A stretch of DNA of 43,652 nt, taken from UHGV virus genome UHGV-0201380; one strand, 5' to 3'. This document shows positions 10,967 through 43,345 of this stretch, in pieces. The DNA comes from a virus. The notes under the pieces were generated by a model. It saw only the letters and a program-made list of their open reading frames with translations, was not told the origin of the DNA and ran no database searches. Position 1 is the first letter of the stretch. Every line of letters begins with the position of its first letter. The position numbers were made by a program, and so were the translations under genes.

Positions 10967-11383
10967 TCACTGGGAGCAAAAAGAGTAAGCAGACCCCCAA
11001 AGGTCTGCGTGCAGTAAACTATTGTAGTCCCCATAAGTCACGTCGAACTCTCGCCAGTTAGTATCGTACTCAGGACTAGCCAATAACTCATCCTTTGTGA
11101 AGCATCTCCCTTCCTGAATCTGTGCTAAGTGTATGGCCCGGTGAGTGTCAGCGCTAACCAGTATCAGGTTATTGAAGTCACAGTTAAGGCGGTTACTGTC
11201 ACAGTGATGTACGTGATAGCCAGAACCGTAGCTAGTGATTCCCAGAGCATCCATAACCACGGCCCTATGCAGCGCCACAGTCTTATAGTCTCTCTTACCT
11301 CGCTTATTCACATACTCAGGCCCAGCACCATTAATCACTGGATAACCTTCCTTATCAACCACAATCTTAAATGTTCTAGCCAC
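10967..11383 (-). CDS. HNH homing endonuclease
   Basis: 138 aa with HVHHCDSNRLNCDFNNLILVSADTHRAIH (HNH core). Free-standing, between the terminus repeat region and the early promoters. A GC hairpin plus T-run overlaps its last codons (about 10975..11008). Confidence 0.8.
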   Translation of the reverse strand: MARTFKIVVDKEGYPVINGAGPEYVNKRGKRDYKTVALHRAVVMDALGITSYGSGYHVHHCDSNRLNCDFNNLILVSADTHRAIHLAQIQEGRCFTKDELLASPEYDTNWREFDVTYGDYNSLLHADLWGSAYSFCSQ

Positions 11384-12205
11384 AACAATATCTCCTTACA
11401 TAGTGATTAGTAGCGTAACCATAGCGACGATATCCCGGAGGGATAGGAGCGGAGGTTACAAGATTCTAGGTAATGCTTCCCTCCCTACGGTCAGTCATAC
11501 AGGGCATTACTAGGGGATACTAGTGACTACTAGTGAGTAGTAGTAAGTAGTGTGTATATAGTGCCCTAAAACCCTCCTACTCCTGTAACATCATTTCATG
11601 ACAGCTTTCGAATGAAAGTAAGAGCAAGGGGATAGCAAAGAGATAGCGCCGGGATAGTGTTGGGTGAGGATGTGCGCCCTAGTGGGGAGCGCGCAGCGTA
11701 GCATATAATCGGCACAATGTAAAGCACTAGGGATAGCCAGTGGATAGCCTAGTGCATACTAGGGATAGCACCGTGACGCACTACAGCGCACTAGGCAGGC
11801 CCACTATGGCCCCACAATGCAGGCACTAGGCGGGCCCACTATGGACGCGCAAAATAAGCAAGGCAGAGCGCACCCCTACGGCCCACAGGGAGCGCACAGG
11901 GATAGCCCCTAGTGCCCCGTAGAGCGCACAGGAGCCACTCAGTGCCACGCACAGGCCAAGCCGTGGGGCAGCACTAGCGATAGCCCCAGCGCAGCGCAGG
12001 GAGCCACTGAGGCCCTCTGAGGCTTCCGCTATAGCCACGGTCTTAGCTGCCGTGGCGCTCCACACCTCAGAGAGCGCCCTAGGGCCGTCTAGACGTCTAG
12101 GCACCCACCCCACCCCTCCTTTTATGCGCTAGGCACCCCCTATGGGGGCAATTGGCGTCGTTGAGGGTGAGGGAGGCTCAAGGGCGAGTATAATAATTTT
12201 TGGTT
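11384..12205. repeat. Non-coding repeat-rich region, probable physical genome terminus or terminal-repeat neighbourhood
   Basis: About 820 bp with no ORF of 60 aa or more on the coding strand. Dense short direct repeats (GGGATAGC about 8 times, CACTAG/CTAGTG about 9 times), a 21-bp direct repeat CACTAGGC(A/G)GGCCCACTATGG twice about 39 bp apart, and tagt-type microrepeats at 11521-11560. Lies between the last late gene and the early region. Confidence 0.5.
11575..11591 (-). promoter_or_regulatory. Candidate phage-RNAP promoter-like motif, copy A
   Basis: Exact 17-mer TCCTACTCCTGTAACAT (minus strand ATGTTACAGGAGTAGGA), one of three identical copies in the window, here within the terminus region. 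Confidence 0.35.
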
Positions 12206-12667
12206 TCAGATATACACCTGCCCCGGGGTGAAGGCCTTGTGTTGCTCTTGACGTTTCTCTAGTACCCACTTGCAGATAACTTCGTAGGAGCTGTGCTTCT
12301 TCATGTAACGCTTACCGTCCTTCCAGAACTCCCCGCGCCAGCAGGTGCCAGTGTAGTATACACCCCTAGGATGTTCCCGCTTAGACCTGCGTGCGTTACA
12401 GTTGTTTTCGCTAACCGTAGCTAAGCGCAGGTTCTCTAATCTGTTGTCACCGGGGTTTTGGTTGATGTGGTCCACCACATATCCGTCTGGAATAGGCCCG
12501 TTGTGTAGTTCCCAGATGAGGCGGTGTGCCTGTATCTTTCTACCAGATACCTGTACCACCCAGTAGCCACGAGTGTTGCGGGTACCCGCTGGAGCACCGG
12601 CGCGCCTACCCTTGAGCCACACCAAGCAGCTAGGGGATGTTGTGTCATATTTGATGTTCATAGACAT
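12206..12667 (-). CDS. HNH homing endonuclease (HNH plus AP2-like DNA-binding region)
   Basis: 153 aa with HRLIWELHNGPIPDGYVVDHINQNPGDNRLENLRLATVSENNCNA. Last gene before the terminus region. The upstream intergenic region carries GTATCTCTA direct repeats. Confidence 0.85.
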   Translation of the reverse strand: MSMNIKYDTTSPSCLVWLKGRRAGAPAGTRNTRGYWVVQVSGRKIQAHRLIWELHNGPIPDGYVVDHINQNPGDNRLENLRLATVSENNCNARRSKREHPRGVYYTGTCWRGEFWKDGKRYMKKHSSYEVICKWVLEKRQEQHKAFTPGQVYI

Positions 12668-12763: not shown

Positions 12764-14719
12764 TTAGAGATACACCTCCCAGGCTACCTGGGATACATCC
12801 GCTGCGTTACTACTCCTAATCACGAAGCTGTTTAGGTCCGGATTAGGTGTAGGTACATCCTGGTTCTGTGCTACGCCAGTAACCGTCAAGGCCCCAGCAC
12901 TAGAAGGAAAGGTTAACCGCGTCAACTTGACCTCAGACACCCACTTGAAGGAGTTAGCTACGCTGCCAAAGTTTCCGCGTACACGAGCGTTGACCGTAGC
13001 CTCACCCGCAACCAGTGTTGCCACTCCGCGAATGCTTGTGTCGTCCAGTAAGTTCCTGGACATGCGCGGAGGCGTAGGCTGCACAGTATAACCACTCAGT
13101 AATGCCCAAGACACACCGTGACCGGTCATGTCATTATTGGACATAGATACCATGGTAGGGTTAATGCCCATAGTCCCGTGGAAGTACACAGCTCTTCCGG
13201 TACCGTCGTAGCGCATGCTCACGTCATCAATCTCCAGGGATGTCTGCGCTGTCTCAGCCACATCCTTAGTGACGAAGATGTGAGAGCTGGAGTTGCGCGT
13301 GTACCGACCGCCTTTAACACGGCCCCCGTTGATTCGCACACCATTCTGGCTACCGTGAGCCTCGCAGTCATAAACGTAGCCACCACCGTACGAACAGTTA
13401 AAGCCAGAGCGTACGTTGTCATAAGCTAGGCACTCCCTATAGATAGGGAAGGCTACACCGGTGTTGGAGGCGAACCCGTCCAGAGCTGCACGGTAAGCTC
13501 GACAGTTCAAGTACTCTACCCCGTTAGTGCGCGCTTGGAACCCATCGTCAGCACTGTCGTACGAAACGCAGCGAACGAACTTCACACGCTTACCAATGTC
13601 GTGAGTATCAAATCCAGCATGGGTTGTGCTGTAGGCTTCGCAGTTAACGCCTAAGAACTCGATAGGCTCTCCCCACTTGTCCCCGTCTGCAGTGCTCTGC
13701 CAGTTCAAAGAGATTGCGTGGCGTACGTCCATAGCGTGGATATCGTGTACTTCCGTGTCCTCTGAGCAGCCGAGCACCTCTACCCCGTACCATCCGATGT
13801 TGTAGAAGTACGTACCCTTAACGGTGCTGTCTACGCAGTTATTGAACTTGATAGCGCTACGCCCTTCTATATCAGAAGCCCCTGGGCGTTTGTTGCCAAT
13901 AATAACCCCGTCCTGGATGTGCAAGTCCGCGGCAAAGTTGGCAGAGATACCGATAGTAAAGAACCGGTTCAAATCGTCGTAGCCGAACTCGTTGATGTAC
14001 GGGGATACTAAGGTTACGTTCTCCACCATTGTCGGGATACCTACTTCCGCAGCATCAGACAGGTAGTAGTTATAGTGCAGCGCTTTATCCAGCCGAATGC
14101 TGGTGACGCCACCGGAGGTGCTAACACCCACCACTTTCCTAATCTGGGAAATCTTTACCCCGTAGGTGTTAGGCCCACCGTCGCATAGCTTGTTAGAGCG
14201 AAGATACAAGTACGTACCTTTTACCACAGACAAAGCACCAGCAGCCACCGTAATGACTTTGCTGCCCGCCGCAGCGTCCGCCGCTAACGGTACGAACGCC
14301 GATGGTGCCGCGCCGATAATATTAAGCACCTGACGCGCAACCGCAGCGTCCGGTAGGATTCTTCCGGTATCGGTAAACTCTAGCGTAGAGTTGCTTTTGA
14401 TGTTGAGCACACTCGTGGCCTGCAGGACTGTGTCCACAACCAGGTGCCTATTAGGCGCGCTCATGAACGTGACTATGCCTGCCCAATTGCTGAACCAGGA
14501 GCTGTATGCCGGGCCCGTGAATTTACGGAGCAGATACCCACCGGGCACAGCAAACACAGTCCCGTTATCTACTACCGACGCAGCAGTAGTAAAGGTGAAA
14601 TCCCCACCACCACTGCCCAGTAGGATAATCTTGTCCTGCACCTGAAAGTTTGGATATGCTACCATGCTCGCCAAGTCGGAGAATACCCGCTCTGGAGCTA
14701 CTAATCTAATTAACGCCAT
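12764..14719 (-). CDS. Tailspike protein, probable polysaccharide depolymerase (beta-helix)
   Basis: 651 aa, Gly/Asn/Thr/Ser/Val-rich composition typical of parallel beta-helix tailspikes. Encoded after the lysis cassette at the genome end, as in KP34-like phages. Substrate unknown. Confidence 0.7.
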   Translation of the reverse strand: MALIRLVAPERVFSDLASMVAYPNFQVQDKIILLGSGGGDFTFTTAASVVDNGTVFAVPGGYLLRKFTGPAYSSWFSNWAGIVTFMSAPNRHLVVDTVLQATSVLNIKSNSTLEFTDTGRILPDAAVARQVLNIIGAAPSAFVPLAADAAAGSKVITVAAGALSVVKGTYLYLRSNKLCDGGPNTYGVKISQIRKVVGVSTSGGVTSIRLDKALHYNYYLSDAAEVGIPTMVENVTLVSPYINEFGYDDLNRFFTIGISANFAADLHIQDGVIIGNKRPGASDIEGRSAIKFNNCVDSTVKGTYFYNIGWYGVEVLGCSEDTEVHDIHAMDVRHAISLNWQSTADGDKWGEPIEFLGVNCEAYSTTHAGFDTHDIGKRVKFVRCVSYDSADDGFQARTNGVEYLNCRAYRAALDGFASNTGVAFPIYRECLAYDNVRSGFNCSYGGGYVYDCEAHGSQNGVRINGGRVKGGRYTRNSSSHIFVTKDVAETAQTSLEIDDVSMRYDGTGRAVYFHGTMGINPTMVSMSNNDMTGHGVSWALLSGYTVQPTPPRMSRNLLDDTSIRGVATLVAGEATVNARVRGNFGSVANSFKWVSEVKLTRLTFPSSAGALTVTGVAQNQDVPTPNPDLNSFVIRSSNAADVSQVAWEVYL

Positions 14720-15328
14720 TTATCCTCCGGTCTTAGTAAGAGCTGCCACCGCAGCATTTACATTCTTATACTGATTCCCAATGGCCTTGCTCTGCCACTG
14801 TCTGCGCCCCCATAGGCCCCAGCACACTTTATTGCGCTGCCCGTTAATATACTGAGAACAGTCGAAGGTCCAGCGGTTGCTACCCTTGTACACCCAACCG
14901 ATGCCCGGGGATTTCTGCTGGTACTTGCTAATATAGCGCCAGTCCAGTACGGCCTTTCCAGCTGCTGCGTAATCCAGGTTCTTGAGATGCCGCTTCACGG
15001 AGCTGCCGTTGAAGCCAGCTACTCCTACGTTATAAATAAAGTCTATAGACCCAACCAGAGCTACATCAGAGAGCTGCATAGGAAGCCCGTCAAGGGCTTT
15101 TGCGTGTTCCCCTGCTGATTGTATCAGTTGCTTCTGACAATCGCTCAGCGTGGCTCTCTGGCCCATCTTGACGCCCTTTGTCTCGCCATAGCAGATGGTA
15201 GGGACACCGGCACTGTCCCTATAGGCGGGGAGGCTTAGACCTTCGTTATGCTTAATCACTCCAGTGATAGCGCCGCCGAGCATGGTGGCCCCCGTAAGGG
15301 CCGCCACAACCTTAGTCCTTAAACTCAT
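14720..15328 (-). CDS. SAR endolysin (T4 lysozyme-like, GH24 muramidase)
   Basis: 202 aa. N-terminal weakly hydrophobic Gly/Ala-rich segment (VVAALTGATMLGGAITGV) is a signal-anchor-release domain. EGLSLPAYRDSAGVPTICYGET matches the T4 lysozyme Glu/Asp/Thr catalytic region, and GVAGF is the conserved later motif. Confidence 0.85.
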   Translation of the reverse strand: MSLRTKVVAALTGATMLGGAITGVIKHNEGLSLPAYRDSAGVPTICYGETKGVKMGQRATLSDCQKQLIQSAGEHAKALDGLPMQLSDVALVGSIDFIYNVGVAGFNGSSVKRHLKNLDYAAAGKAVLDWRYISKYQQKSPGIGWVYKGSNRWTFDCSQYINGQRNKVCWGLWGRRQWQSKAIGNQYKNVNAAVAALTKTGG

Positions 15329-15563
15329 ATTTAATAGTCCCCTTACGTGCCTGCTCCTCTAGGAGCTTGAATGTACGTCGCTTGTAATACGCATTCCACG
15401 CCAGGGTTAACACTGCGCACACCGTCGCAGTGATGAAGCTGATAGTGCTCCAGTTCCAGCTCATTAACTCTGCCAACCAACCTCCTGATACCGTAGCGCC
15501 GGTAACTGCTGCACCTGCCCGGGTAGCGATGTCTGCTCCAACCATGTCTCCCACCTTAATCAT
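15312..15563 (-). CDS. Holin (pinholin-like, two TMDs)
   Basis: 83 aa with two hydrophobic segments (the first Gly/Ala-rich, the second WSTISFITATVCAVLTLAW) and a charged C-terminus. Overlaps the endolysin start. Confidence 0.6.
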   Translation of the reverse strand: MIKVGDMVGADIATRAGAAVTGATVSGGWLAELMSWNWSTISFITATVCAVLTLAWNAYYKRRTFKLLEEQARKGTIKYEFKD

Positions 15564-15960
15564 CCTGCTGCCCCTTCTTCCTGAACAGCTTACGAATCAC
15601 CAGAATGACCACTAGGAAGACCAGAGGAATACTGGCCCCAGCTAATCCGGCGAGGATAAGACTGTAACTATCATTGTTAACCACCTGCAGGCGTTCTGCC
15701 TGGATTGTCCCGGTGCTAATAGTTTGCACCTGCTTCTTACTGGACGTGTCCAAAGTGCCTACGTTAGAATCCTGTACATCAGTTTTGTTGGTGGTGCTGG
15801 AGTCCACCTTGTTATTCAAGCCAACGGTTTGTTTGGTGTTCTCGGCACCAACCTGAGCAGATACATCCGGCTTAGAACCAACTAAGCCGGTGAGTGCAGA
15901 GGTCGCCGAGCAACCAGTCAGAGTAACCGCGAGCAGCAACCCAGCGACCAGTTTACGCAT
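15556..15960 (-). CDS. Spanin, unimolecular-type topology (lipoprotein with C-terminal TMD)
   Basis: 134 aa. N-terminal signal with lipobox LTGC (MRKLVAGLLLAVTLTGCS) and C-terminal TM segment (LILAGLAGASIPLVFLVVILVI) followed by basic residues. No separate i-spanin or embedded o-spanin seen. Confidence 0.5.
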   Translation of the reverse strand: MRKLVAGLLLAVTLTGCSATSALTGLVGSKPDVSAQVGAENTKQTVGLNNKVDSSTTNKTDVQDSNVGTLDTSSKKQVQTISTGTIQAERLQVVNNDSYSLILAGLAGASIPLVFLVVILVIRKLFRKKGQQDD

Positions 15961-16142
15961 TAGCTAGCAGCCTCCACTGCGGCCACCGCGGCTTCAAGCG
16001 CAGCAATCTTGGTATCGAAGGCAGCACCAGTCTGGGCCACGTTCTGCGGCTGCGTAAGGATAGCATACAGGTCCTTACCGAGAATGTTCAGCTGACGCAA
16101 CAGCTCCTGCTGTTGCGCTGAGGTTGCTTTTGCAATTGCCAT
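15960..16142 (-). CDS. Hypothetical small Ala/Gln-rich protein
   Basis: 60-aa ORF between the terminase module and the lysis cassette; translationally coupled to the spanin gene. Confidence 0.4.
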   Translation of the reverse strand: MAIAKATSAQQQELLRQLNILGKDLYAILTQPQNVAQTGAAFDTKIAALEAAVAAVEAAS

Positions 16143-16153
16143 GTGTACTCTCC

Positions 16154-16528
16154 TTATTCTGCCGCATCAGTGGCGGCTACGAATGCACTCTGCAGTGCAG
16201 TGAACGAATCATCAAACGCTGTACCGGAGCCCTCACCGAGCGGCATACCTGTACCTGTAAGGGCAACGTAGCCGGTCTTAGAGAGCTGTGACAGCATGCT
16301 GAACAGGCGCGCCTGCAGCGTACCGTCATCCTTAAAGGCTGTACCGGCACGGGTAGCCGTATAGCCCTGGGACTGCATGTACGTGAAGAACGCGTTCAGC
16401 TTAGTCAGGGCAGTCGTACCTACGAAGCCTACGTTGTAGTCCGGCTGCACCTGCTTCTCCAGGTTCTGGCACGTGCCTACAATGGCGTACTGGACGTCCG
16501 CAGTTTTAGCTGCGATGATTGATGCCAT
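16154..16528 (-). CDS. Hypothetical protein
   Basis: 124-aa ORF immediately downstream of the large terminase. No recognised domain. Confidence 0.5.
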   Translation of the reverse strand: MASIIAAKTADVQYAIVGTCQNLEKQVQPDYNVGFVGTTALTKLNAFFTYMQSQGYTATRAGTAFKDDGTLQARLFSMLSQLSKTGYVALTGTGMPLGEGSGTAFDDSFTALQSAFVAATDAAE

Positions 16529-18384
16529 TATCTTCTTCCTCTATGTTGTTTACCTCTGCCCCGGTTATGTAGCCGAGCAGCTACACCACGAAGGCCCTTA
16601 GACACTTTGCTCTGTGCCCAATCCAGTGGGTTCTCAATGAAGGCCCGAGCCATCTTCTCAGACTCACGCTCAGCCACCACTTTCTCATCTTCCACCAGAT
16701 GCCCATTCAGCGTAGCCACCATCATGGCGATTGCGTCTGCCCGGTCATCCTTCGCAAGGCTACCGCGGTCGTACGTGATACCGGACAACTGCGCGAACGC
16801 AGAGTACAGCCAACGCCTATCGCGGGAATATGCCATACAGGTACTGATATCGTCGTGAATAGCACGCTCATGCACTATCAGGCGATGGCGACGAGTAACT
16901 GGGCTGATTGTGTCGATGATACGACGCTCTTTCTGCGTGGAGTTATTCAGGTCCCTTACACCGATACCGGCGAGACGCCGCTCACGTAATCGGTTCAGGA
17001 TAAGCATAGACACGGTACCGTGCCCCATATTGCTCTCCACCACCATATCCGGGATGTCCAACTCTACACACAGGTCAATCAGTTTATCAATGTTCTCTTC
17101 GCTGATACCTCCTTGGAATCCGCCTACGGAGAATAGGTGAATGTACGAGTTCGCAGCACCTCCAGCAGCGTAGGACACTTCGTCCCCACCACAACCAGCC
17201 GGGTCCACCACCAGTACCTTATGCTGGTACGGCAGGTGCATGTCCCCGTAGAATGCCGGGAAGTACATCTGCTGACCCATAATCCCCTCATGCTCGTGCT
17301 GGTACAGGTACCTGCGGTCCGCAATGTAGGAGAACGTCTCCGGGGAGGAATCCTGGCTGCCAGAGTAAACCAGCATATCCGATAGCTTGATGCGCGTACG
17401 CATTTGGTCGGACAGGGTGGTGTCGAGCATGTACTGCAGCTGGAAGCCTTCCGGACCAAAGTCCAGCTCCTTCTCAATCAGCGCATCCTCGTCATAGCGC
17501 CCGGTGTCCGTGCTCTCGCCTAGCGTTCCGTCGACTCCGAAGCCGGTGCGTTTATAGCCGCGCTCAATAAGCTCCAGGATATAAGGAGCAAGTGTACTTC
17601 CATATCGCTCTTCCATTTCAACAGACGGAATGCGCCCGGGCCACACGCGGACCTCGAAGCCACGTCCCGGCAGGGTTTTATAGATACTGTCCTTGGTCTG
17701 TGGTGTACCCAGGTACAGCGTATCCCCGTGCGTACAGATAGCCGCGAAGTCTTTAGAAATCATCAGCAGCTGCTCACGCTGGGTTTGCGTTAAACCATTC
17801 TTGGTGGTCTCGATATCATCCGGAATCAGCAGGTCCGCGCGCTTACCCTGCAGGGATGCAGTGATACCTACACAGGCTACGCTGGCGGATTTCTCCAGCG
17901 GCTTGAGGTCACAGTGTACGTCATAACCTTCGAATGAAGTACGGTCCCCACGAGTAGGATCAGCCTTCAAATAGCACAGCAGCGGCCATGTCTCAATCAT
18001 ACGAATGATTAAGTTCGCTACGTCGGACGCCTGCTTCTCTGCACCGGACACAATCAGGATACGGCAGGATTGGTCCTGGATGAGCCTCCAGACGGCGTAC
18101 AGTGCAGCTAGTGTAGACTTAGCCTCACCACGCTGCGCGGCCACCATGCGCTTCCGGGGGCCCTTCTGCATGTACTCTGCAATGTCGGCCTGCATGTCCG
18201 TGAGCGTAAAGCCCAGGAACCGCATACCGATGTACGCGAATTCCCGGAAGTCGCTTAGCGCCGCGGCCATCATCATCGCGATATCCTCGCGCTCCTCTTT
18301 GGGAATACTGCGCGGATTCGCACTATAACCAGTAAGTTTCTGGTTGAGCATGCGCAGTCTTCGCGCAGTCTTCACCGATACCAT
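16528..18384 (-). CDS. Terminase large subunit (T7 gp19-like DNA maturase B)
   Basis: 618 aa, Walker A-like QRGEAKS near the N-terminus, size and position after the small terminase as in T7-like phages. Confidence 0.9.
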   Translation of the reverse strand: MVSVKTARRLRMLNQKLTGYSANPRSIPKEEREDIAMMMAAALSDFREFAYIGMRFLGFTLTDMQADIAEYMQKGPRKRMVAAQRGEAKSTLAALYAVWRLIQDQSCRILIVSGAEKQASDVANLIIRMIETWPLLCYLKADPTRGDRTSFEGYDVHCDLKPLEKSASVACVGITASLQGKRADLLIPDDIETTKNGLTQTQREQLLMISKDFAAICTHGDTLYLGTPQTKDSIYKTLPGRGFEVRVWPGRIPSVEMEERYGSTLAPYILELIERGYKRTGFGVDGTLGESTDTGRYDEDALIEKELDFGPEGFQLQYMLDTTLSDQMRTRIKLSDMLVYSGSQDSSPETFSYIADRRYLYQHEHEGIMGQQMYFPAFYGDMHLPYQHKVLVVDPAGCGGDEVSYAAGGAANSYIHLFSVGGFQGGISEENIDKLIDLCVELDIPDMVVESNMGHGTVSMLILNRLRERRLAGIGVRDLNNSTQKERRIIDTISPVTRRHRLIVHERAIHDDISTCMAYSRDRRWLYSAFAQLSGITYDRGSLAKDDRADAIAMMVATLNGHLVEDEKVVAERESEKMARAFIENPLDWAQSKVSKGLRGVAARLHNRGRGKQHRGRR

Positions 18385-18686
18385 TAGACAATTCCTTCTA
18401 GTAAGTCCTCAGAGTCTGAACCACCAACTTTATTTAGAATCTCTTGCTTACGCGCCTCTCTGCGCGCCGCTAGCTCGTCATCGAATTCGTCACGAAGGTC
18501 CTGCATCTCCTCGGAATCTGCGTCCGCGGTGATGTCGTTATCCTTCAAGAACTTAGCAATGACCGATTTATCTGCTGCGGGGAGCGGCACCTCATCTTCC
18601 TTAGACTGCTTGATTTCTTCAATCAAGGCCTCGGTGAACATACGGTGCAGCTCCGAGAGGCGACTGCGTTTAGCTGCCCCTGCCAT
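18384..18686 (-). CDS. Terminase small subunit (T7 gp18-like DNA maturase A)
   Basis: 100 aa, acidic C-terminal half, stop overlaps the large terminase start by 1 nt. Called by position and composition. Confidence 0.6.
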   Translation of the reverse strand: MAGAAKRSRLSELHRMFTEALIEEIKQSKEDEVPLPAADKSVIAKFLKDNDITADADSEEMQDLRDEFDDELAARREARKQEILNKVGGSDSEDLLEGIV

Positions 18687-18698
18687 GCTCTTCTCCTA

Positions 18699-19655
18699 TC
18701 ATGTAGACAGCACCCCACTGGTGCGTAGCGCTGCCAGCAGTGCGTTAAATTTAGCCACTACATCCCCGGTGCCGGTTGCGTTGGATACAGCTGCAGCCTT
18801 GTCCAGATACGCCAAATCTCCCAAAGAGTCGGCTAAGTAATCTAGGGATGCTTGCGTAGCAAAACCGTCCCCCGCAGTTACATCAACCCCCAGCCGAGCG
18901 GCTACAATAGTGCCTGCAGGTAAGGTCTCTGCAAACAGTATGGTATTATCTACAATATCGAAACTGTAGCCACGAATCTGCCCAACCCCGTTAACCTCTA
19001 CTACAGCCTTAGTGAAGGCTAAGCCTGGAGTTACTTCGTCCGTATCAGTGGCCAGGACCGTGCTCCACGGGTAGCTTACCGTCTCTACACCGCTTATAAA
19101 GGTGTTCTCCAAGGCGGAGGTACGGGCACTCAGCGCGTCATCTGCTGCCTTCCGTGTAACGGCTTCGGCCTGTACAGCGGATACCCACCCCGAATGCTCT
19201 GCGTCAATGCGCTGTCCTAGTAAGGCATCGGCGGCATCTACATAAGCCTTAGTGGCGGCATCTTGGGCACTGATTGGGTTGGCTAAGTTGGTTATCCGGT
19301 ACCCGTTCATGCTGATAGCGCCATAGAATCCGGGTATAGCCCGGCCCTCCACTAGTTCCTGCGCAAGGTGCAGGAACTGCGTGTTTTGGGAGTCTACGTT
19401 TACCTCAATGAACGGAGAACCACTGGCGAACTCAATGTACAGATACTCTCGCTCTGTCTTACGGATTAGTAGCACAGTAGTGCTTGCCGCTAAGGCCGAA
19501 TTAAGCCTGATATTAGTAGAGCTGGTCCAGGTGTACCCAGTGGTTTCCACACCGTCTAGGTATACATGAATATAGGACTTGTCCAAATATTCAATATCGC
19601 ACTGGATATCCTGGGTACCAGCTGGCTTGATTTGTTCTTGCCAGCTGTATGCCAT
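18699..19655 (-). CDS. Tail fibre / tailspike adaptor protein (T7 gp17 N-terminal domain-like)
   Basis: 318 aa. The N-terminal region resembles the T7 gp17 tail-attachment domain (motif RITNLANPISAQDAATKAYVDAA versus T7 RIVNLANAVDDRDAVPFGQLK). Short length suggests an adaptor for a separately encoded tailspike. Confidence 0.8.
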   Translation of the reverse strand: MAYSWQEQIKPAGTQDIQCDIEYLDKSYIHVYLDGVETTGYTWTSSTNIRLNSALAASTTVLLIRKTEREYLYIEFASGSPFIEVNVDSQNTQFLHLAQELVEGRAIPGFYGAISMNGYRITNLANPISAQDAATKAYVDAADALLGQRIDAEHSGWVSAVQAEAVTRKAADDALSARTSALENTFISGVETVSYPWSTVLATDTDEVTPGLAFTKAVVEVNGVGQIRGYSFDIVDNTILFAETLPAGTIVAARLGVDVTAGDGFATQASLDYLADSLGDLAYLDKAAAVSNATGTGDVVAKFNALLAALRTSGVLST

Positions 19656-34526: not shown

Positions 34527-36995
34527 TTAGCAGAAGAAGAACGGGGATTCTAGCACTTGCCGGATGTCCAAAGTGCCCACTTCCGGCATGTCCAGGTCCG
34601 TCAAGTCTGCCCCGGCTGCTGCTGCTGCGCGAGTAATGTCGCCAAGCAGGTCATTCTCTTCATACAGGCGCACAAACTGCTCACGGATGTGCCTATGCAT
34701 AGCGTCAACGTCAGCTGCGTGAGTAGCCAGCGAGTCGTGAATAGGCACAATATCCAGACCCTCCGCAGCGCAGAGCACCATCATCAAGTGCGTACTGTCC
34801 AGGCTATGCACAAAGTTCGGGGCAATCCCGGAGGCTGCCTTGCGCTTGTTGCAAGTTTTGAAGTCCCGGTTGTGTACCAGTACCGCTGATAGGTTCATGC
34901 AGTCAATACGTACGCGCACTTCTTCACGCTGCGTGTAGCGGTTCATTACGAGCCCACCCAGCGGCGTATACCACTGCAGATGCTGGCTTGCCGGTACACG
35001 CCTAGCGAGGTTCTGCAAGTACCCCATAACTGCGGCTGCGGCTGGGTTTGCCTCCTCGATAGCAGTGCGCATACGCGGAGCCAGGTAGCATGACAAGTTC
35101 CACAGACTGTTAGTCTCAGTACCCTCGTACCCCTCAGCGCAAGCGCCTTCGAAGATGTAGTCGCTGCAGCTGCGCACAGTGGCGCTGTAGAAGTAGGTCA
35201 TACTAGGGCGCTTGGTCATGCTGCGGGTGATTTCGTTCTCTCTCCAGTACGTGCTCTGGATAACGAAATCCTCCTTGTCCAGGTCCAGTATCACCTTCTC
35301 GTCCGTACGGCGCTTCACGTCCATGTACAGGTCCGCTTTCTTATCATTACCCTCCCAGTACAGGTTCGTCAAGCGTCCGCCCACAGGGTCTCTCAGGAGC
35401 GCTGAGAGATGCTGTCCACCTGAGTTTGTAGCGTCCATAGCAACTGGGATTCGGCTAATATGCTCTTCTGGGCATCCAGAACGAACCGCATTAACCAAGT
35501 CGATAGCGGCGGCCAGCAGGCACCAGGGGCTATCCGCAGAGGAAAAAGCAGGGGCATCAAGAGGAGAATCCGCGAGCCTCTCAATCTCTGCATAGTTCGC
35601 ATCAACCCAAGCTGCACGGTCTTCGAATAGGGTTTTGTCATAACCAAAGCAAGTGGCGACGTGCACTTTAAGCCAGAAAAGTCCGCGCTCTCCCAGAGGC
35701 TTGCCACGTCCGAATTCAAGAAGGGCTTTCTGCAAATCAGAACCTTGGGGATGCAGCGAGGACTTGAAGTACAGGCGGTAGCGCCAGTCCACACAAGTCG
35801 GGAAGTACAGGGCTTTCTCATCTTTGAATTCCTCCGCCATTTCCAGCGTGGTCAACAGGCTGCGTAGTTGTGACACACGCTTACGGTCTGCGCTGTACCA
35901 TAGGGACATGCGCGTCTTCCACTCACCGAAGCGGTCCAGTTCTTCTTCGGTGTAGTTCTCTTTTGGTACTCCATCCAAGTACCACTCCGGTTTAGGCTCT
36001 GGTACTGAGCGGGGCATGCCCACCCCAATACCCAGGGCCCGTGCTTCTTGCACCAGTTCCAGTATGCGCTTATTAATACGGTATGGGGTTTCCTGCGCCT
36101 TATTAAGCGCCTTTTTGATGCCGTCCGCGGACTTGAATGCTTCTGCTACTTCACGGAGTCGCGCGCGGTCGATGTGCGAGTTGTGATAGGTCCCGCGATT
36201 GTCGATGGGGGTAAGGTACCCGCCATCCCACATAGTGGTGTGCTGTACCGGTGGCACCAGCATAGGCGGCTTCATGGTTACGGTATCAGCGGACTCTACC
36301 AGTTTCTGGAAGGCCTCCATAACATCGTCAGCCGGGTAGAGCATGCTCAGGTTCCCACTACAGTTCTTCCATTGGAACAGGCCAGTCTCAAACACCGCGG
36401 CACATAGCAGCCGACCTACTGAGATATTCTGGGAGTTGGTCCATGGCTCGTGCCCATAGTGCACGTTCTCAGCACTGGCCCGCAGCGTACGCAGGATGTG
36501 CGTGGGAGACTTGGTCTTACGCTCCGTAAGGTACTCGTACACACGGTCCATGTACGCCGGAGCCACGTTGCGTAACTGCAGGGCCAGCAGTTCCGATTGT
36601 ACGTTCCGGCCCAGCGCGGACATTACCGCCTGTGCAGTCTGGCGGCGGCTAGCGGACTCGCCAGGAGCTACGCTAAATGCCTCAAACATTGTGCATAGGC
36701 TCAGGGTGGTCAGGACATCCAAGGGGACTAAGCGCAGGAACCGGCGGTACTTACCGCCAATGCCCGGGGCTTTTACATTTCGCATCTCATCGATAGCGGC
36801 GGCGGCCACCTCATATGCCGAGGTGAGCATACGCTGCGTCATCGGCAGGTTCATAATCCCACCGTTCTGCAATGCGTCCGTAATCAGCTTACGTGCCCGC
36901 TCGATTCCGCGAATCTTATAGGTCTCTTCAAGCTCCAGCTGGCGTTTCACCAGTGCTTCCTCTGGTACTACAACCGTATTCAGGGCGCTAATCAT
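34527..36995 (-). CDS. Single-subunit DNA-directed RNA polymerase (T7 RNAP family), located next to the structural module
   Basis: 822 aa. Motif A-like PVAMDATNSGGQH, motif B-like RSMTKRPSMTYFYSAT, motif C-like PIHDSLATHAAD. AAGGAGA Shine-Dalgarno. Placement directly upstream of portal is the phiKMV-like hallmark. Confidence 0.95.
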   Translation of the reverse strand: MISALNTVVVPEEALVKRQLELEETYKIRGIERARKLITDALQNGGIMNLPMTQRMLTSAYEVAAAAIDEMRNVKAPGIGGKYRRFLRLVPLDVLTTLSLCTMFEAFSVAPGESASRRQTAQAVMSALGRNVQSELLALQLRNVAPAYMDRVYEYLTERKTKSPTHILRTLRASAENVHYGHEPWTNSQNISVGRLLCAAVFETGLFQWKNCSGNLSMLYPADDVMEAFQKLVESADTVTMKPPMLVPPVQHTTMWDGGYLTPIDNRGTYHNSHIDRARLREVAEAFKSADGIKKALNKAQETPYRINKRILELVQEARALGIGVGMPRSVPEPKPEWYLDGVPKENYTEEELDRFGEWKTRMSLWYSADRKRVSQLRSLLTTLEMAEEFKDEKALYFPTCVDWRYRLYFKSSLHPQGSDLQKALLEFGRGKPLGERGLFWLKVHVATCFGYDKTLFEDRAAWVDANYAEIERLADSPLDAPAFSSADSPWCLLAAAIDLVNAVRSGCPEEHISRIPVAMDATNSGGQHLSALLRDPVGGRLTNLYWEGNDKKADLYMDVKRRTDEKVILDLDKEDFVIQSTYWRENEITRSMTKRPSMTYFYSATVRSCSDYIFEGACAEGYEGTETNSLWNLSCYLAPRMRTAIEEANPAAAAVMGYLQNLARRVPASQHLQWYTPLGGLVMNRYTQREEVRVRIDCMNLSAVLVHNRDFKTCNKRKAASGIAPNFVHSLDSTHLMMVLCAAEGLDIVPIHDSLATHAADVDAMHRHIREQFVRLYEENDLLGDITRAAAAAGADLTDLDMPEVGTLDIRQVLESPFFFC

Positions 36996-40592: not shown

Positions 40593-41381
40593 TTAGGCTT
40601 GAGGTGCGGCGGGTGCTGCTGGCGCCACAGGGGCTGCAGGGGCCACTGGTGCAGCCGGGGCTGCGGGTGCCTGCATAGCTGCCGGACTAGGAACCGAGCC
40701 AGCGTTCAGCAGAATATCCAGAGCACTGCCAGGGAAGTCTACAGCCTTGTACATATCCTCCTGAATCCAGTTCTTGCTCTTACCATCGTCGAAGGTGCCT
40801 TCGATGTGCAGGCTATCCCAGGTCTCTTTGGTTGGGTTGTTCCACAGGAACAGCTTAATCTCAGAGGCATCCATGGCAGGCATCTTGATAGGCTCGCCAG
40901 TGTTCGGGTCGAATTTCGGAATCGGGCGGATACCGGACAGGTCCACGATGTTGGACTTCTTGCCCGCGGCGCTGGTGTGCTCATCAATCGGGAAGGTGAA
41001 GGCCTGGCCCAGACGCTGTGCTGCATGCTTAATGCTATTGTCGTAGTTGAGCTTGTCGAAGAACTTCTTGAAGCCTGCGCGCTCAAAGTTACTGATAGCC
41101 ATCGGGAACGGGCGGATACGCTTCACTTCGCCGTTAGGACCGAACACTACAATGCCGATGCGTACGTTAGCTACTGCGGGCTTACCGGTCGGCTTGCCAC
41201 CCTTAGTCGGCAGGCGCTTACCGATTTCTACGTACTCGGTGAAGTAGCCGTAGTATTCACCCTTCGGCAGCAGCACGTCCTCATATGCGCCGCCCTGTGC
41301 GGTTTCCCGCATATCTACATCTTGGGTTCCGATTGCTGCGTCTACCAGAGCGTTCAGGGATGCCAATACATTCGTAGTCAT
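40593..41381 (-). CDS. Hypothetical protein with Pro/Ala-repeat C-terminal tail
   Basis: 262 aa; C-terminus PAAMQAPAAPAAPVAPAAPVAPAAPAAPQA is low-complexity. Lys/Gly-rich central region. No catalytic motif recognised. Confidence 0.55.
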   Translation of the reverse strand: MTTNVLASLNALVDAAIGTQDVDMRETAQGGAYEDVLLPKGEYYGYFTEYVEIGKRLPTKGGKPTGKPAVANVRIGIVVFGPNGEVKRIRPFPMAISNFERAGFKKFFDKLNYDNSIKHAAQRLGQAFTFPIDEHTSAAGKKSNIVDLSGIRPIPKFDPNTGEPIKMPAMDASEIKLFLWNNPTKETWDSLHIEGTFDDGKSKNWIQEDMYKAVDFPGSALDILLNAGSVPSPAAMQAPAAPAAPVAPAAPVAPAAPAAPQA

Positions 41382-41402
41382 ATAATTACGTCCTCGTTTA
41401 GT

Positions 41403-41972
41403 TTAAATGATATTTACGTGCAGATGCAGGGCTATGCGTTTGCACAGTCCTACGAAGTCATCGTGGTGCATGTCAGACTTCATATAGTTGCAGGTAGGGC
41501 AGCATGGCACACAGTTGTCTAAATGGTACCCAATGCGTGAATCCTTCCGGTCTATCCCGTTAGTGGGTACTGTGGATTTACGCGCCCATCTCCCACTGCC
41601 GAGTTCCCGGTAGGTACTGGGTGGCGCGCCGCAGTAATAACAATCTGCGCTTACTAAGGCCTTGGCGTCTTCCTTAGTAATACTCCTACCTAACTTAGTG
41701 CTAAAGGCCCATACCTTATTCGCCGATACTGTTAAGTCGTCCAGCTTATTAGGCGGAGTTCGTCCAGTATTCTTCTCACTTTGCCTGAGTTTAGTTTGAC
41801 ATCCGCAGTGACCAAGGCCGCCGCGCTTACTGGTATTGAATAGCTTAGTGCGTATCGCCTCAAACTCCTCGCCACAGTAAGGGCAGTCCCAGGTATAAAC
41901 AACCATACCGCGGAATCTCTTTCCTGTATCAGTCTTTGGTTTTATCTCTTGCACACCACCTTCCGGAATCAT
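41403..41972 (-). CDS. Zinc-finger protein with degenerate HNH-like nuclease motif
   Basis: Track ORF starts at TTG 41975, with an ATG at about 41972; an alternative ATG at about 41906 avoids overlap with the phosphoesterase gene. CPYCGEEF and HCGCQ Cys pairs; C-terminal NGIDRKDSRIGYHLDNCVPCCPTCNYMK resembles an HNH core with His replaced. Confidence 0.45.
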   Translation of the reverse strand: MIPEGGVQEIKPKTDTGKRFRGMVVYTWDCPYCGEEFEAIRTKLFNTSKRGGLGHCGCQTKLRQSEKNTGRTPPNKLDDLTVSANKVWAFSTKLGRSITKEDAKALVSADCYYCGAPPSTYRELGSGRWARKSTVPTNGIDRKDSRIGYHLDNCVPCCPTCNYMKSDMHHDDFVGLCKRIALHLHVNII

Positions 41973-42918
41973 CAAGCAGCATCGGGATTAACTGCGGACA
42001 GCCCTCGGTGATTACCATCACACCCAGGATTGGTTTCTTGCGGGTGAGTCTGCCGTAAGCAAAGGCCATGCTCTTACGGTCAATCAGACACCCAGCATAC
42101 GCACCAAAGTACAAAGCTGTTGAGCTAGCTGCATATTGCACCTCAAAGCGACCATGTTCGTGACCAAGGACAAGGCTGGTTCTTTCGTGGCTAGCGTTGA
42201 GCATGAAGTCACCCGACACTTGATGCTGGAATCTAACCGGGCCAAGTGGGGTATTGAGTACCCATGCGTCAGCCCAAGACCACGCCGGGGCACCATGCTC
42301 AGGGAAAAGTATATCTCGGTACTTCTTGATGAATTGCACTGGTAGCCCGTGAGCTTTCGCCCTGCGGTAAACCAGACTGCCGTGATTGGAATCGCAAACC
42401 AGTAGGTTCGGGAATAGTTCATGCAGCTCCTCCAGTACGAGCTTGGCTTTCTCCAGCTCCACCCCGGCGCTATCTAGGTTCGGGTTACTTTCGTGGAATG
42501 ATATAGCGTGGCCGTCCGTCTCGTCGCCTACCTGTACAACCATGTCCGGACAGTAGGCGTCTCGCACAGATTCTAAGAAGGCCATAGCATCTACGTGCGT
42601 ATAGGGGGCATGCAAATCCCCAACTACGAGAATACGGTGGCACACTTCCGGCACGAAGGTTTTGCCGATGTCATCAGTGGGACTGGGCTGTATGAGCTTT
42701 AGTGCCTCCTTCATGTGGGATATTGCCTTACCCTTGCTCCCAGCGTGGTCTAGGAATATGCTGCGCCAGTACTTCACCATCTGTCGATACACCACTGGCT
42801 CGTCCAGTCCCGCCAGATTATTATAGGCGGCAGCAGCATCCACGTTAGAGCTGTGCTTGCTCAAGATATCTATGTGTTGCTCTTTGGTGAATAGCTTTAT
42901 TGTGTTTAACTTAGGCAT
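41929..42918 (-). CDS. Calcineurin-like metallophosphoesterase (Ser/Thr protein phosphatase / phosphodiesterase superfamily)
   Basis: 329 aa with the ordered motifs VVGDLHAPY (GDxH), VQVGDETDGH (GDxxD), CDSNHGS (GNH[DE]-like) and LGHEHGRF (GH-x-H). Substrate cannot be assigned. Confidence 0.8.
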   Translation of the reverse strand: MPKLNTIKLFTKEQHIDILSKHSSNVDAAAAYNNLAGLDEPVVYRQMVKYWRSIFLDHAGSKGKAISHMKEALKLIQPSPTDDIGKTFVPEVCHRILVVGDLHAPYTHVDAMAFLESVRDAYCPDMVVQVGDETDGHAISFHESNPNLDSAGVELEKAKLVLEELHELFPNLLVCDSNHGSLVYRRAKAHGLPVQFIKKYRDILFPEHGAPAWSWADAWVLNTPLGPVRFQHQVSGDFMLNASHERTSLVLGHEHGRFEVQYAASSTALYFGAYAGCLIDRKSMAFAYGRLTRKKPILGVMVITEGCPQLIPMLLDDSGRWCARDKTKD

Positions 42919-43345
42919 TCCAGCTCCTGTTACTTATTACGTCACTAATTACATGTACACCTACACCGTACTTATTAGCAAAGTGTTGCCGCATACCTTT
43001 CTTGTATGGGATATAGTTATCCCTGATATCCTGCACAGCATCCCAAGTTAACTGCGCTTTTGGGTTCCTATCCCCACGCACATCTGGGTTCCTTCCGCGC
43101 TCTGCACGGTCCCGCATATTATCCATATGCGTTCCCAATACTAAGTGCTTAGGGTTAATGCACCTGGGGTTATCGCAGGTATGTCTAACAGACAGGCCAG
43201 CCAGCGCCCTTATATCCAGCCCGTTATGCTCAGCATACACCACCCGATGCAGCAGCTCCAATCGCCTGGTCGGCTTATACCATGCCCGGCGGTATCCGTT
43301 CTTGTTAAGGCATTTGTTATACCCGTGGTCAATACACATCGACAT
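42911..43345 (-). CDS. HNH homing endonuclease
   Basis: 144 aa with HRVVYAEHNG ... HTCDNPRCINPKHLVLGTHMDNM. Overlaps the phosphoesterase start by 8 nt. Confidence 0.85.
   Translation of the reverse strand: MSMCIDHGYNKCLNKNGYRRAWYKPTRRLELLHRVVYAEHNGLDIRALAGLSVRHTCDNPRCINPKHLVLGTHMDNMRDRAERGRNPDVRGDRNPKAQLTWDAVQDIRDNYIPYKKGMRQHFANKYGVGVHVISDVISNRSWNA

Follow-up and report, generated by a model that had tools for sequence, protein, structure and literature searches.

A K1 lyase-like tailspike and its short tail adaptor in a Drulisvirus genome from human gut metagenomes

What is the product of the 651-aa open reading frame (ORF) encoded behind the lysis genes of this phage genome, and how would it be carried by a virion with a tail-fibre gene of only 318 aa? 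The initial annotation of the window (i.e. the whole 43,652-nt stretch of virus genome UHGV-0201380 analysed here) had proposed a beta-helix tailspike, probably a depolymerase, combined with a short T7 gp17-like adaptor. The explanation that best fits the data as a whole, and which we consider highly probable, is a single functional receptor-binding protein (RBP), namely a K1-lyase tailspike docked on the 318-aa adaptor.

Genome context and gene order

The window aligned colinearly with Klebsiella phage NTUH-K2044-K1-1 at ~ 90% nucleotide identity over ~ 39.6 kb, and many Drulisvirus records matched it at 89–92% identity over 77–91% of its first 25 kb. The RNA polymerase gene (34527-36995) lies upstream of the portal gene, in line with its usual place just ahead of the structural genes in Drulisvirus. 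The window is a complete, circularly permuted genome of a Drulisvirus (KP34-like) Klebsiella phage (Autographiviridae, Slopekvirinae). The exact tailspike protein was found on four ~ 44-kb human-gut metagenome contigs. The genes and regions surrounding the locus are the following:

18699..19655, minus strand: adaptor, or truncated first RBP ("tail fiber"), 318 aa (ORF, Pfam, PHROG)
18384-18686, minus strand: terminase small subunit (PHROG 891)
16528-18384, minus strand: terminase large subunit (PHROG 38)
16154-16528, minus strand: 124-aa hypothetical protein (ORF)
15960-16142, minus strand: 60-aa hypothetical protein (ORF)
15556-15960, minus strand: Rz-like/U-spanin (lipobox; PHROG Rz-like spanin)
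15312-15563, minus strand: holin (Pfam Phage_holin_2_1; PHROG holin)
14720-15328, minus strand: endolysin (Pfam Phage_lysozyme; PHROG endolysin)
14720..15960, minus strand: lysis cassette (spanin, holin, endolysin), directly upstream of the tailspike
12764..14719, minus strand: tailspike, or second RBP, predicted K1 capsule-specific polysaccharide lyase, 651 aa
12206..12667, minus strand: HNH homing endonuclease (Pfam HNH_3, E 4e-22; PHROG 99)
11866..12172, no strand: homologous counterpart of the direct terminal repeats in relatives (mapping of related phage repeats)

Seven genes (terS, terL, the 124-aa and 60-aa ORFs, spanin, holin and endolysin) separate the adaptor from the tailspike. The tailspike ORF starts with an ATG located 5 nt downstream of a GGAGGA Shine-Dalgarno motif, its start codon abutting the TAA stop of the endolysin, and it directly follows the spanin–holin–endolysin genes as initially annotated. 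Its placement at the genome end, also claimed at first, held only in part. The terminal repeats of NTUH-K2044-K1-1 (234 bp), KpV41, KpV71 and VKV295 mapped to window positions ~ 11866–12172. This gene is however the penultimate one, since the HNH endonuclease, which comes last, separates it from the terminal repeat, and the physical genome ends probably lie at ~ 11866–12172 (approximate boundaries), inside the permuted window rather than at its edge. The HNH gene is present in NTUH-K2044-K1-1, KpV71 and BUCT712, and unannotated in the KpV41 and Cap62 records. Between positions 11400 and 20000, a consensus scan returned 5 promoter-like sites for a shuffled expectation of 6.9, i.e. no excess, and a terminator scan found no convincing candidate on the minus strand directly after the tailspike. 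The phage encodes its own RNA polymerase.

Assignment of the tailspike to the K1 lyases

Three Pfam families, K1-lyase_N, K1-lyase_Rider and K1-lyase_C, matched the tailspike in this order (131.5, 129.6 and 60.5 bits, for a gathering cut-off of 27 each), and PHROG 18512 matched it end to end (1333 bits). The homology search for a beta-helix, originally suggested with a pectate-lyase-like fold in mind, retrieved the crystallised trimeric beta-helix K1 lyase: PDB 7W1C was colinear over residues 1–651, with 1426 bits, 96.5% identity and 23 substitutions. The generic Pfam Beta_helix match fell marginally short of its cut-off, with 24.1 against 25.9 bits. The corresponding gene product of NTUH-K2044-K1-1, ORF34 (BAP15746/YP_009098385; PDB 7W1C/7W1D/7W1E), shares with the tailspike its length of 651 aa, a colinear sequence (96.5–96.8% identity, 96.8% for the ORF34 protein), the same three Pfam domains and the catalytic and binding residues. 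In alignments with seven related Klebsiella phages, among them KpV41, KpV71 and Cap62, which are K1 phages, amino acid identity was 95.5–97.8%, and tblastn retrieved 51 phage records at 95–99% identity. The domains and key residues were located as follows:

14507..14719, minus strand: MALIRLV heptapeptide and collagen-XVIII-like trimerisation, or putative particle-binding, domain, residues 1-71 (PF24145, E 1e-38)
14030..14296, minus strand: "Rider" domain, residues 142-230 (PF24149, E 6e-38)
13529..13789, minus strand: predicted catalytic centre in the central beta-helix, with Tyr311 at 13787-13789, His373 at 13601-13603 and Arg397 at 13529-13531 (codons verified)
13304..13306, minus strand: Arg472, conserved residue of a second, non-catalytic inter-subunit carbohydrate-binding site
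12773..13033, minus strand: C-terminal beta-sandwich domain, residues 563-649 (PF24146, E 2e-16)

These elements correspond to those described for the K1 lyase, i.e. an N-terminal domain (Glu10-Pro70) with a putative role in particle binding, a Rider that protrudes from the beta-helix and stabilises the trimer, and a C-terminal beta-sandwich (PMC8822698). Mutagenesis identified Tyr311, His373 and Arg397 as catalytic in this enzyme, and the R472A substitution lowered enzyme activity, plaque size and adsorption (PMC8822698). Every catalytic, sugar-contact and second-site residue named in that structure paper is kept in the tailspike: Q130, Y186, T255, I256, N261, E285, G286, R287, K291, N293, W310, Y311, E314, R333, H334, N339, W340, H373, R378, R397 and R472. 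Within the Rider, K154, K167 and H215 are conserved and residue 213 is an alanine, matching the RefSeq ORF34. Y311, H373 and R397 are invariant even in homologues sharing only 36–39% identity, from K64-1 (S2-4) and the Webervirus vB_LZ2044.

Judged by sequence, the 651-aa protein is a near-identical copy of the crystallised and tested K1 lyase of NTUH-K2044-K1-1. Its 96.5% full-length identity to the solved structure 7W1C predicts a trimeric right-handed parallel beta-helix, and the depolymerase initially suspected, now assigned to the K1 capsule lyases by homology to 7W1C/D/E with catalytic and sugar-binding residues intact, is predicted to be a lyase acting by beta-elimination and not a hydrolase. 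Homologues and literature suggest that K1 specificity, lyase chemistry and trimer formation probably extend to the tailspike of the window. Among hypervirulent K. pneumoniae causing liver abscesses, K1 is the predominant serotype. The K1 lyase identity makes the predicted host type readable straight from the sequence and marks the window as a Klebsiella phage that targets the K1 capsule. Publications already cover the enzyme with its structure and mechanism, as well as the split layout of adaptor and tailspike, and the feature is ordinary for this phage genus. The window therefore brings no new biology, its new information being limited to one more natural sequence variant, from human gut metagenomes.

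Natural variation of the lyase and capsule specificity

Fourteen to 29 substitutions distinguish the tailspike from each of the seven aligned relatives, five of which (V68T, S137A, G499D, L523M and S615G) are unique to the window among the relatives compared. Two others, C304Y and Q367H, are located close to W310/Y311 and H373, respectively, only a few residues away, and the host of this gut-metagenome phage is a predicted one. Such observations could be read as those of a K1-lyase family member whose substitutions inactivated the enzyme, or shifted or broadened its specificity toward a different capsule type or modification state. We consider this very unlikely, as none of the published catalytic, contact and second-site residues has changed, and Y304 and H367 are polymorphisms common to other phages (Y304 in RCIP0104, BUCT712, Cap62 and vB_AbaA_LLY; H367 in BUCT712 and vB_AbaA_LLY), Cap62 having itself been isolated on K1 NCTC5054. 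Moreover, the phages encoding homologues of only 36–39% identity were isolated on K1 hosts. Relative to the NTUH-K2044-K1-1 lyase, none of the 21–23 substitutions falls at a residue of known function, for genomes only ~ 90% identical at the nucleotide level. There is a slim chance that the five unique substitutions alter the tolerance to K1 O-acetylation or pyruvylation, or allow action on a K1-like capsule made by a different Klebsiella species. If the specificity had indeed changed, the tailspike would represent a naturally occurring variant, with altered specificity, of an enzyme in therapeutic use.

The short adaptor and the proposed docking of the tailspike

The description of the 318-aa protein as an adaptor resembling the N-terminus of T7 gp17 was borne out by its domain content. 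PF03906 (Phage_T7_tail) covers residues 13-141 (E 6e-20) and is its sole Pfam domain above the gathering score, with no enzymatic domain. The protein comprises, in order, the anchor, a helical stretch and a proposed branching module:

19233..19619, minus strand: T7 gp17-type N-terminal anchor (tail-binding), adaptor residues 13-141 (PF03906)
18861..19124, minus strand: proposed branching (T4 gp10-like) module, adaptor residues ~ 178-265 (assignment from PMC6872550 and PMC13352976)

Its closest solved chains are a 307-aa "tail fiber gp9" (PDB 23sh_r, E 2e-175) and gp44 of the Shigella phage HRP29, called a tailspike adapter in the literature, which aligned to residues 1-141 (E 3e-74). The N-terminus matches those of HRP29 gp44, phiM1 gp47 and other podophage fibres or tailspikes. 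The adaptor is 92% identical to ORF28 of NTUH-K2044-K1-1 and has hundreds of homologues of 307–318 aa. In two of them, P0001 and P0003, the module at residues ~ 178-265 is tandemly duplicated and so behaves as a discrete unit. A PDB profile search with the adaptor alignment (E <= 10) matched only N-termini of podophage fibres, adaptors and tailspikes, the T4 gp10 chain being absent. The AlphaFold2 model was poor (mean pLDDT 51.9, pTM 0.27, from a 21-sequence alignment), an outcome probably explained by the low diversity of the homologues, none of which falls below 77% identity. PHROG tail-fibre profiles of 538–793 positions matched the adaptor only over their first ~ 245–346 positions. A full-length T7 gp17-type tail fibre was rejected as an identity for this protein, which ends at 318 aa and carries neither shaft nor C-terminal receptor-binding tip.

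The tailspike opens with MALIRLV, an instance of the N-terminal heptapeptide MALxxLV shared by the second RBPs of KP34viruses (PMC6872550). By tblastn, the domain spanning residues 1-71 was found only in K1-lyase relatives and in a truncated VKV295 protein (residues 1-171), which fits the report of Latka et al. that the heptapeptide alone is common to second RBPs (PMC6872550). The idea that the whole N-terminal domain is common to all Drulisvirus second RBPs was ruled out by this distribution. In scaffold engineering of KP32, with parts of the K11 and KP34 RBPs as donors, incorporation of the second RBP required the branching domain as well as the conserved peptide (PMC13352976).

From these homologues and published data, we infer the following docking. 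The T7 gp17-type domain at its N-terminus would hold the adaptor on the tail, and the tailspike, lacking a tail anchor of its own, would dock through MALIRLV and its small trimerisation domain on the branching module in the C-terminal part of the adaptor. As the single functional RBP, the homotrimeric beta-helix tailspike would then bind the K1 capsular polysaccharide of Klebsiella pneumoniae and cut it by beta-elimination into pieces of 1–3 repeat units, with Tyr311 acting as the base, His373 as the acid and Arg397 neutralising the uronate. The second, non-catalytic site around Arg472 would hold the pyruvylated polymer.

That the tailspike instead binds the tail directly or is freed as a soluble enzyme, with the 318-aa protein reduced to a vestigial fibre stub that plays no part in carrying it, is slightly less probable still than a change of specificity: docking of the pair is deduced rather than observed, the adaptor searches gave no T4 gp10-like match and the K1-lyase paper goes no further than a putative particle-binding role for the N-terminal domain (PMC8822698), but the PF03906 anchor is absent from the tailspike (Pfam) and present in the adaptor, the high conservation of the latter at 307–318 aa in hundreds of genomes argues against decay, both the branching domain and the peptide are required in the KP32 scaffold (PMC13352976), a solved structure exists for another adaptor of this family, HRP29 gp44, and the R472A mutant phage adsorbs less well, which places the action of the enzyme on the virion (PMC8822698).

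The preferred arrangement, a K1-lyase tailspike docked on the short adaptor, has close counterparts. The split layout, initially annotated as typical of capsule-targeting podoviruses, matches that of group A KP34viruses, in which a truncated anchor protein accompanies a second RBP carrying MALxxLV (KP34 gp49/gp57, KpV71, KpV475), and NTUH-K2044-K1-1 and KpV71 are listed with the same pair of 318 aa and 651 aa (Latka et al. 2019, PMC6872550). As in the window, these phages encode a ~ 300-aa PF03906 anchor without enzyme domain and place the second RBP after the terminase and lysis genes. There is no architectural difference between them and the window, the enzymatic module varying between members with capsule type; KP34 gp57, for instance, is K63-specific (PMC13352976). 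Synteny with NTUH-K2044-K1-1 takes in ORF28 (318 aa), ORF34 (651 aa) and the HNH gene ORF35 behind it, with ORF34 located after the endolysin and before the HNH gene and terminal repeat. KpV41, a group B Drulisvirus, encodes a 97.1% identical K1 lyase at the same position after the endolysin, but with a full-length first RBP of 858 aa it has two candidate RBPs, and no HNH gene is annotated after its tailspike. HRP29 gp44 (PDB 8ES4) is likewise short (260 aa), has an N-terminal domain of the T7 gp17 type and connects tailspikes encoded by separate genes to a T7-like tail; it differs from the adaptor in its C-terminal half, its tailspike partner, its O-antigen target and its host.

The proposal that the distal gene sets the capsular type is supported by relatives sharing the same backbone and carrying other second RBPs, and by the recurrence of the lyase module in K1-infecting sipho- and jumbo phages. 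The lyase body (~ 36–651) is found at 34–39% identity, with Y311, H373 and R397 kept, in PDB 9K4A (922 aa), in vB_LZ2044 (838 aa), a Webervirus isolated on NTUH-K2044, and in S2-4 (888 aa) of the jumbo phage K64-1. Unlike the tailspike of the window, these proteins bear long N-terminal attachment regions for sipho- or jumbo-phage baseplates in place of the short docking peptide.

A predicted capsule K1 lyase encoded after the lysis genes

The minus strand of the window holds almost all of its long ORFs. Among them, the flagged ORF at 12764..14719 (-) is genuine, with 651 codons, an ATG start and a GGAGGA ribosome-binding site located 5 nt upstream; its start codon follows the TAA stop of the gene before it with no gap. 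The second ORF named by the initial annotation, at 18699..19655 (-), indeed yields a product of 318 aa. Pfam and PHROG scans provided the gene order.

Gene order on the minus strand, 5' to 3', from Pfam and PHROG scans
Upstream end of the order, (-): RNA polymerase, then portal, scaffold and major capsid
Before the adaptor, (-): tail tubular proteins A and B, then three internal virion proteins
19655-18699, (-): adaptor
18686-18384, (-): terminase small subunit
18384-16528, (-): terminase large subunit
Between the terminase large subunit and the spanin, (-): two small hypothetical genes
15960-15556, (-): Rz-like/U-spanin
15563-15312, (-): holin
15328-14720, (-): endolysin
14719-12764, (-): tailspike
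12667-12206, (-): HNH endonuclease

In this order, the tailspike gene immediately follows the lysis cassette, as had been claimed, with the adaptor gene seven genes upstream of it. Its proposed role as a depolymerase is supported by three Pfam domains, K1-lyase_N (residues 1-71), K1-lyase_Rider (142-230) and K1-lyase_C (563-649), all far above their gathering scores, together with a marginal match to the generic Beta_helix family (359-466). A PDB sequence search recovered the crystallised K1 lyase (7W1C/7W1D/7W1E) over its full length, gap-free and with 1426 bits, the 23 differences corresponding to 96.5% identity. Identity reached 96.8% with the RefSeq ORF34 of phage NTUH-K2044-K1-1 and 95.5-97.8% (amino acids) with seven aligned phage relatives, and 51 phage records found by tblastn share 95-99% identity. 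In every tested respect, the 651-aa protein thus reads as a member of the K1-lyase tailspike family. The exact protein was also found on four ~44-kb human-gut metagenome contigs, and the exact adaptor likewise recurs on such contigs.

Catalytic residues and lyase relatives

The K1 lyase of NTUH-K2044-K1-1 is a trimeric right-handed beta-helix tailspike that degrades the K1 capsule to fragments of 1-3 repeat units through beta-elimination, in which Tyr311 is the base, His373 the acid and Arg397 the residue that neutralises the uronate; a second, non-catalytic sugar site between subunits depends on Arg472 and matters for adsorption and plaque size (PMC8822698). These four residues are unchanged in the window tailspike, as are the named product-contact residues (Q130, Y186, T255, I256, N261, E285, G286, R287, K291, N293, W310, E314, R333, H334, N339, W340 and R378). 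By analogy with such close homologues studied experimentally, the tailspike would be a K1-specific trimeric beta-helix acting by beta-elimination and contributing to adsorption.

A shift of specificity, or inactivation of the enzyme, is unlikely given that all functional residues are conserved and that the nearby substitutions also occur in isolated relatives. Those nearest the active site relative to the crystallised enzyme, C304Y and Q367H, are shared polymorphisms of isolated phages (Y304 in RCIP0104, BUCT712, Cap62 and vB_AbaA_LLY; H367 in BUCT712 and vB_AbaA_LLY), and only five substitutions are private to the window among the seven relatives compared, none of them at a site of known function. 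Separately, the crystallised chain and ORF34 (41063-43018 in NC_025418), although from the same phage, differ at four positions (T213/A, I256/S, A391/D391 and A392/D392); with A213, I256 and D391/D392, the window protein matches RefSeq at all of these except position 256, where it has the residue of the PDB chain.

Y311, H373 and R397 are also invariant in homologues of 36-39% identity, from a Webervirus isolated on K1 strain NTUH-K2044 and as S2-4 of jumbo phage K64-1, and the same lyase body occurs in PDB 9K4A, a 922-aa "Depolymerase, capsule K1-specific". The lyase body is thus a module passing between phage morphotypes, joined to whichever attachment region each tail needs. A group of ~45-kb podophages (KPN7, ZK1, RCIP0053 and Roth32) carries a full-length homologue that is only ~58% identical to the K1 lyase; KPN7 is filed under Molineuxvirinae, and its copy (OP079918.1, 2442-4411) is annotated as two separate CDSs.

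The short adaptor and tailspike docking

The T7 tail-fibre N-terminal domain (residues 13-141) is the sole above-threshold Pfam match in the 318-aa protein, in agreement with the short gp17-N-like adaptor initially proposed. Tail-fibre PHROG profiles of 538-793 positions are matched just over their first ~245-346 positions, consistent with a fibre truncated after its anchor. The nearest solved chains are "tail fiber gp9" (23sh_r, 307 aa, E 2e-175), Shigella phage HRP29 gp44 (8ES4, E 3e-74, residues 1-141), named a tailspike adapter in the literature, and phiM1 gp47. The adaptor is strongly conserved at 307-318 aa in hundreds of genomes and contigs from metagenomes, which speaks for a working protein and against decay.

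KP34virus receptor-binding systems have been sorted into groups, group A combining a first receptor-binding protein (RBP) of ~300 aa, which joins a T7 gp17 N-terminal anchor to a T4 gp10-like fragment in its C-terminal part, with a second RBP encoded by its own gene five to eight genes downstream; second RBPs have in common only the N-terminal heptapeptide MALxxLV (Latka et al. 2019, PMC6872550). The same survey lists a 318 aa + 651 aa pair for NTUH-K2044-K1-1, KpV71 and KpV475, and flags the depolymerase activity of NTUH-K2044-K1-1 and KpV71 as experimentally verified (PMC6872550). The window tailspike begins with MALIRLV, and the window pair fits this group A Drulisvirus system in its N-terminal anchor, gene spacing and heptapeptide, so that the split architecture is typical, as first suggested. 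By contrast, KpV41 (group B) combines an 858-aa first RBP with the same K1 lyase, and VKV295 (group C-like) a long first RBP bearing a depolymerase domain with a 202-aa remnant matching the K1 lyase over residues 1-171.

The sequence itself establishes what both proteins are, how the genes are laid out, that the docking heptapeptide is present and that the residues for catalysis and binding are intact. Following the genus-level model and engineering in related phages, including a 2026 study by the groups behind that survey in which the KP32 scaffold was engineered with K11 and KP34 RBP parts as donors and incorporation of the second RBP required both the branching domain and the conserved peptide (PMC13352976), the adaptor N-terminal domain would be fixed to the tail and the tailspike N-terminus would dock on the adaptor C-terminal module. 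Attachment of the tailspike to the virion bypassing the adaptor is unlikely: no anchor domain is present in the tailspike, the adaptor is strongly conserved, and the lyase mutation R472A lowered virion adsorption (PMC8822698). The initial observation was confirmed and its interpretation supported; in architecture, position and sequence, the tailspike does not depart from published examples and was already known.

For the putative T4 gp10-like branching module, a profile search of the PDB with the adaptor alignment (E <= 10) returned no T4 gp10, and AlphaFold gave only a low-quality adaptor model (pLDDT 52). That adaptor residues ~178-265 are a discrete module is suggested indirectly by two metagenomic homologues, P0001 (446 aa) and P0003 (406 aa), in which this region is present as a tandem duplicate (RTSALENTFISGVETVSYPWSTVL...AGTIVAARLG, in the alignment of adaptor homologues). 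If the tailspike docks on this module, a single adaptor of these phages may carry two tailspikes, with no long first RBP involved.

Genome ends and closest phages

The 234-bp direct terminal repeat of NTUH-K2044-K1-1 and the annotated repeats of KpV41, KpV71 and VKV295 align with window ~11866-12172; the window is thus a complete genome in circularly permuted form, whose physical right end would lie just past the HNH gene. The claimed location of the tailspike at the genome end stands in substance, the gene being penultimate and followed by this HNH endonuclease. The trailing HNH gene, 12206-12667 (-), also occurs in NTUH-K2044-K1-1, KpV71 and BUCT712; it is absent from KpV41 and not annotated in the Cap62 record. 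Together with a second HNH homing endonuclease gene in the early region, 10967-11383 (-), it flanks the terminal-repeat region. This second gene has no counterpart in NTUH-K2044-K1-1, and the HNH ORF18 that follows the RNA polymerase gene there is absent from the window at ~34530. Inside the repeat-homologous region, ~85 bp (~12020-12105) have no match in the reference repeats of these four phages, so that the window phage would have a longer repeat (~307 bp) or one with other boundaries.

By megablast, the first 25 kb match Klebsiella Drulisvirus phages at 89-92% identity, and the genome is colinear with NTUH-K2044-K1-1 (NC_025418, genus Drulisvirus) at ~90% identity over 39.6 kb aligned. The best whole-genome GenBank matches found (BUCT-H1, phiK2044 and NTUH-K2044-K1-1) reach ~90-92% nucleotide identity over ~80-90% of the length, so the genome may fall under the usual 95% species line and perhaps represent an unnamed Drulisvirus species; such divergence is routine diversity in this heavily sampled genus. 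The phage vB_AbaA_LLY (OQ503491.1), labelled as infecting Acinetobacter baumannii, is itself a Drulisvirus ~91% identical in nucleotides to the window phage, with a K1 lyase 96.6% identical to the window tailspike; its stated host looks doubtful, or would be remarkable if true.
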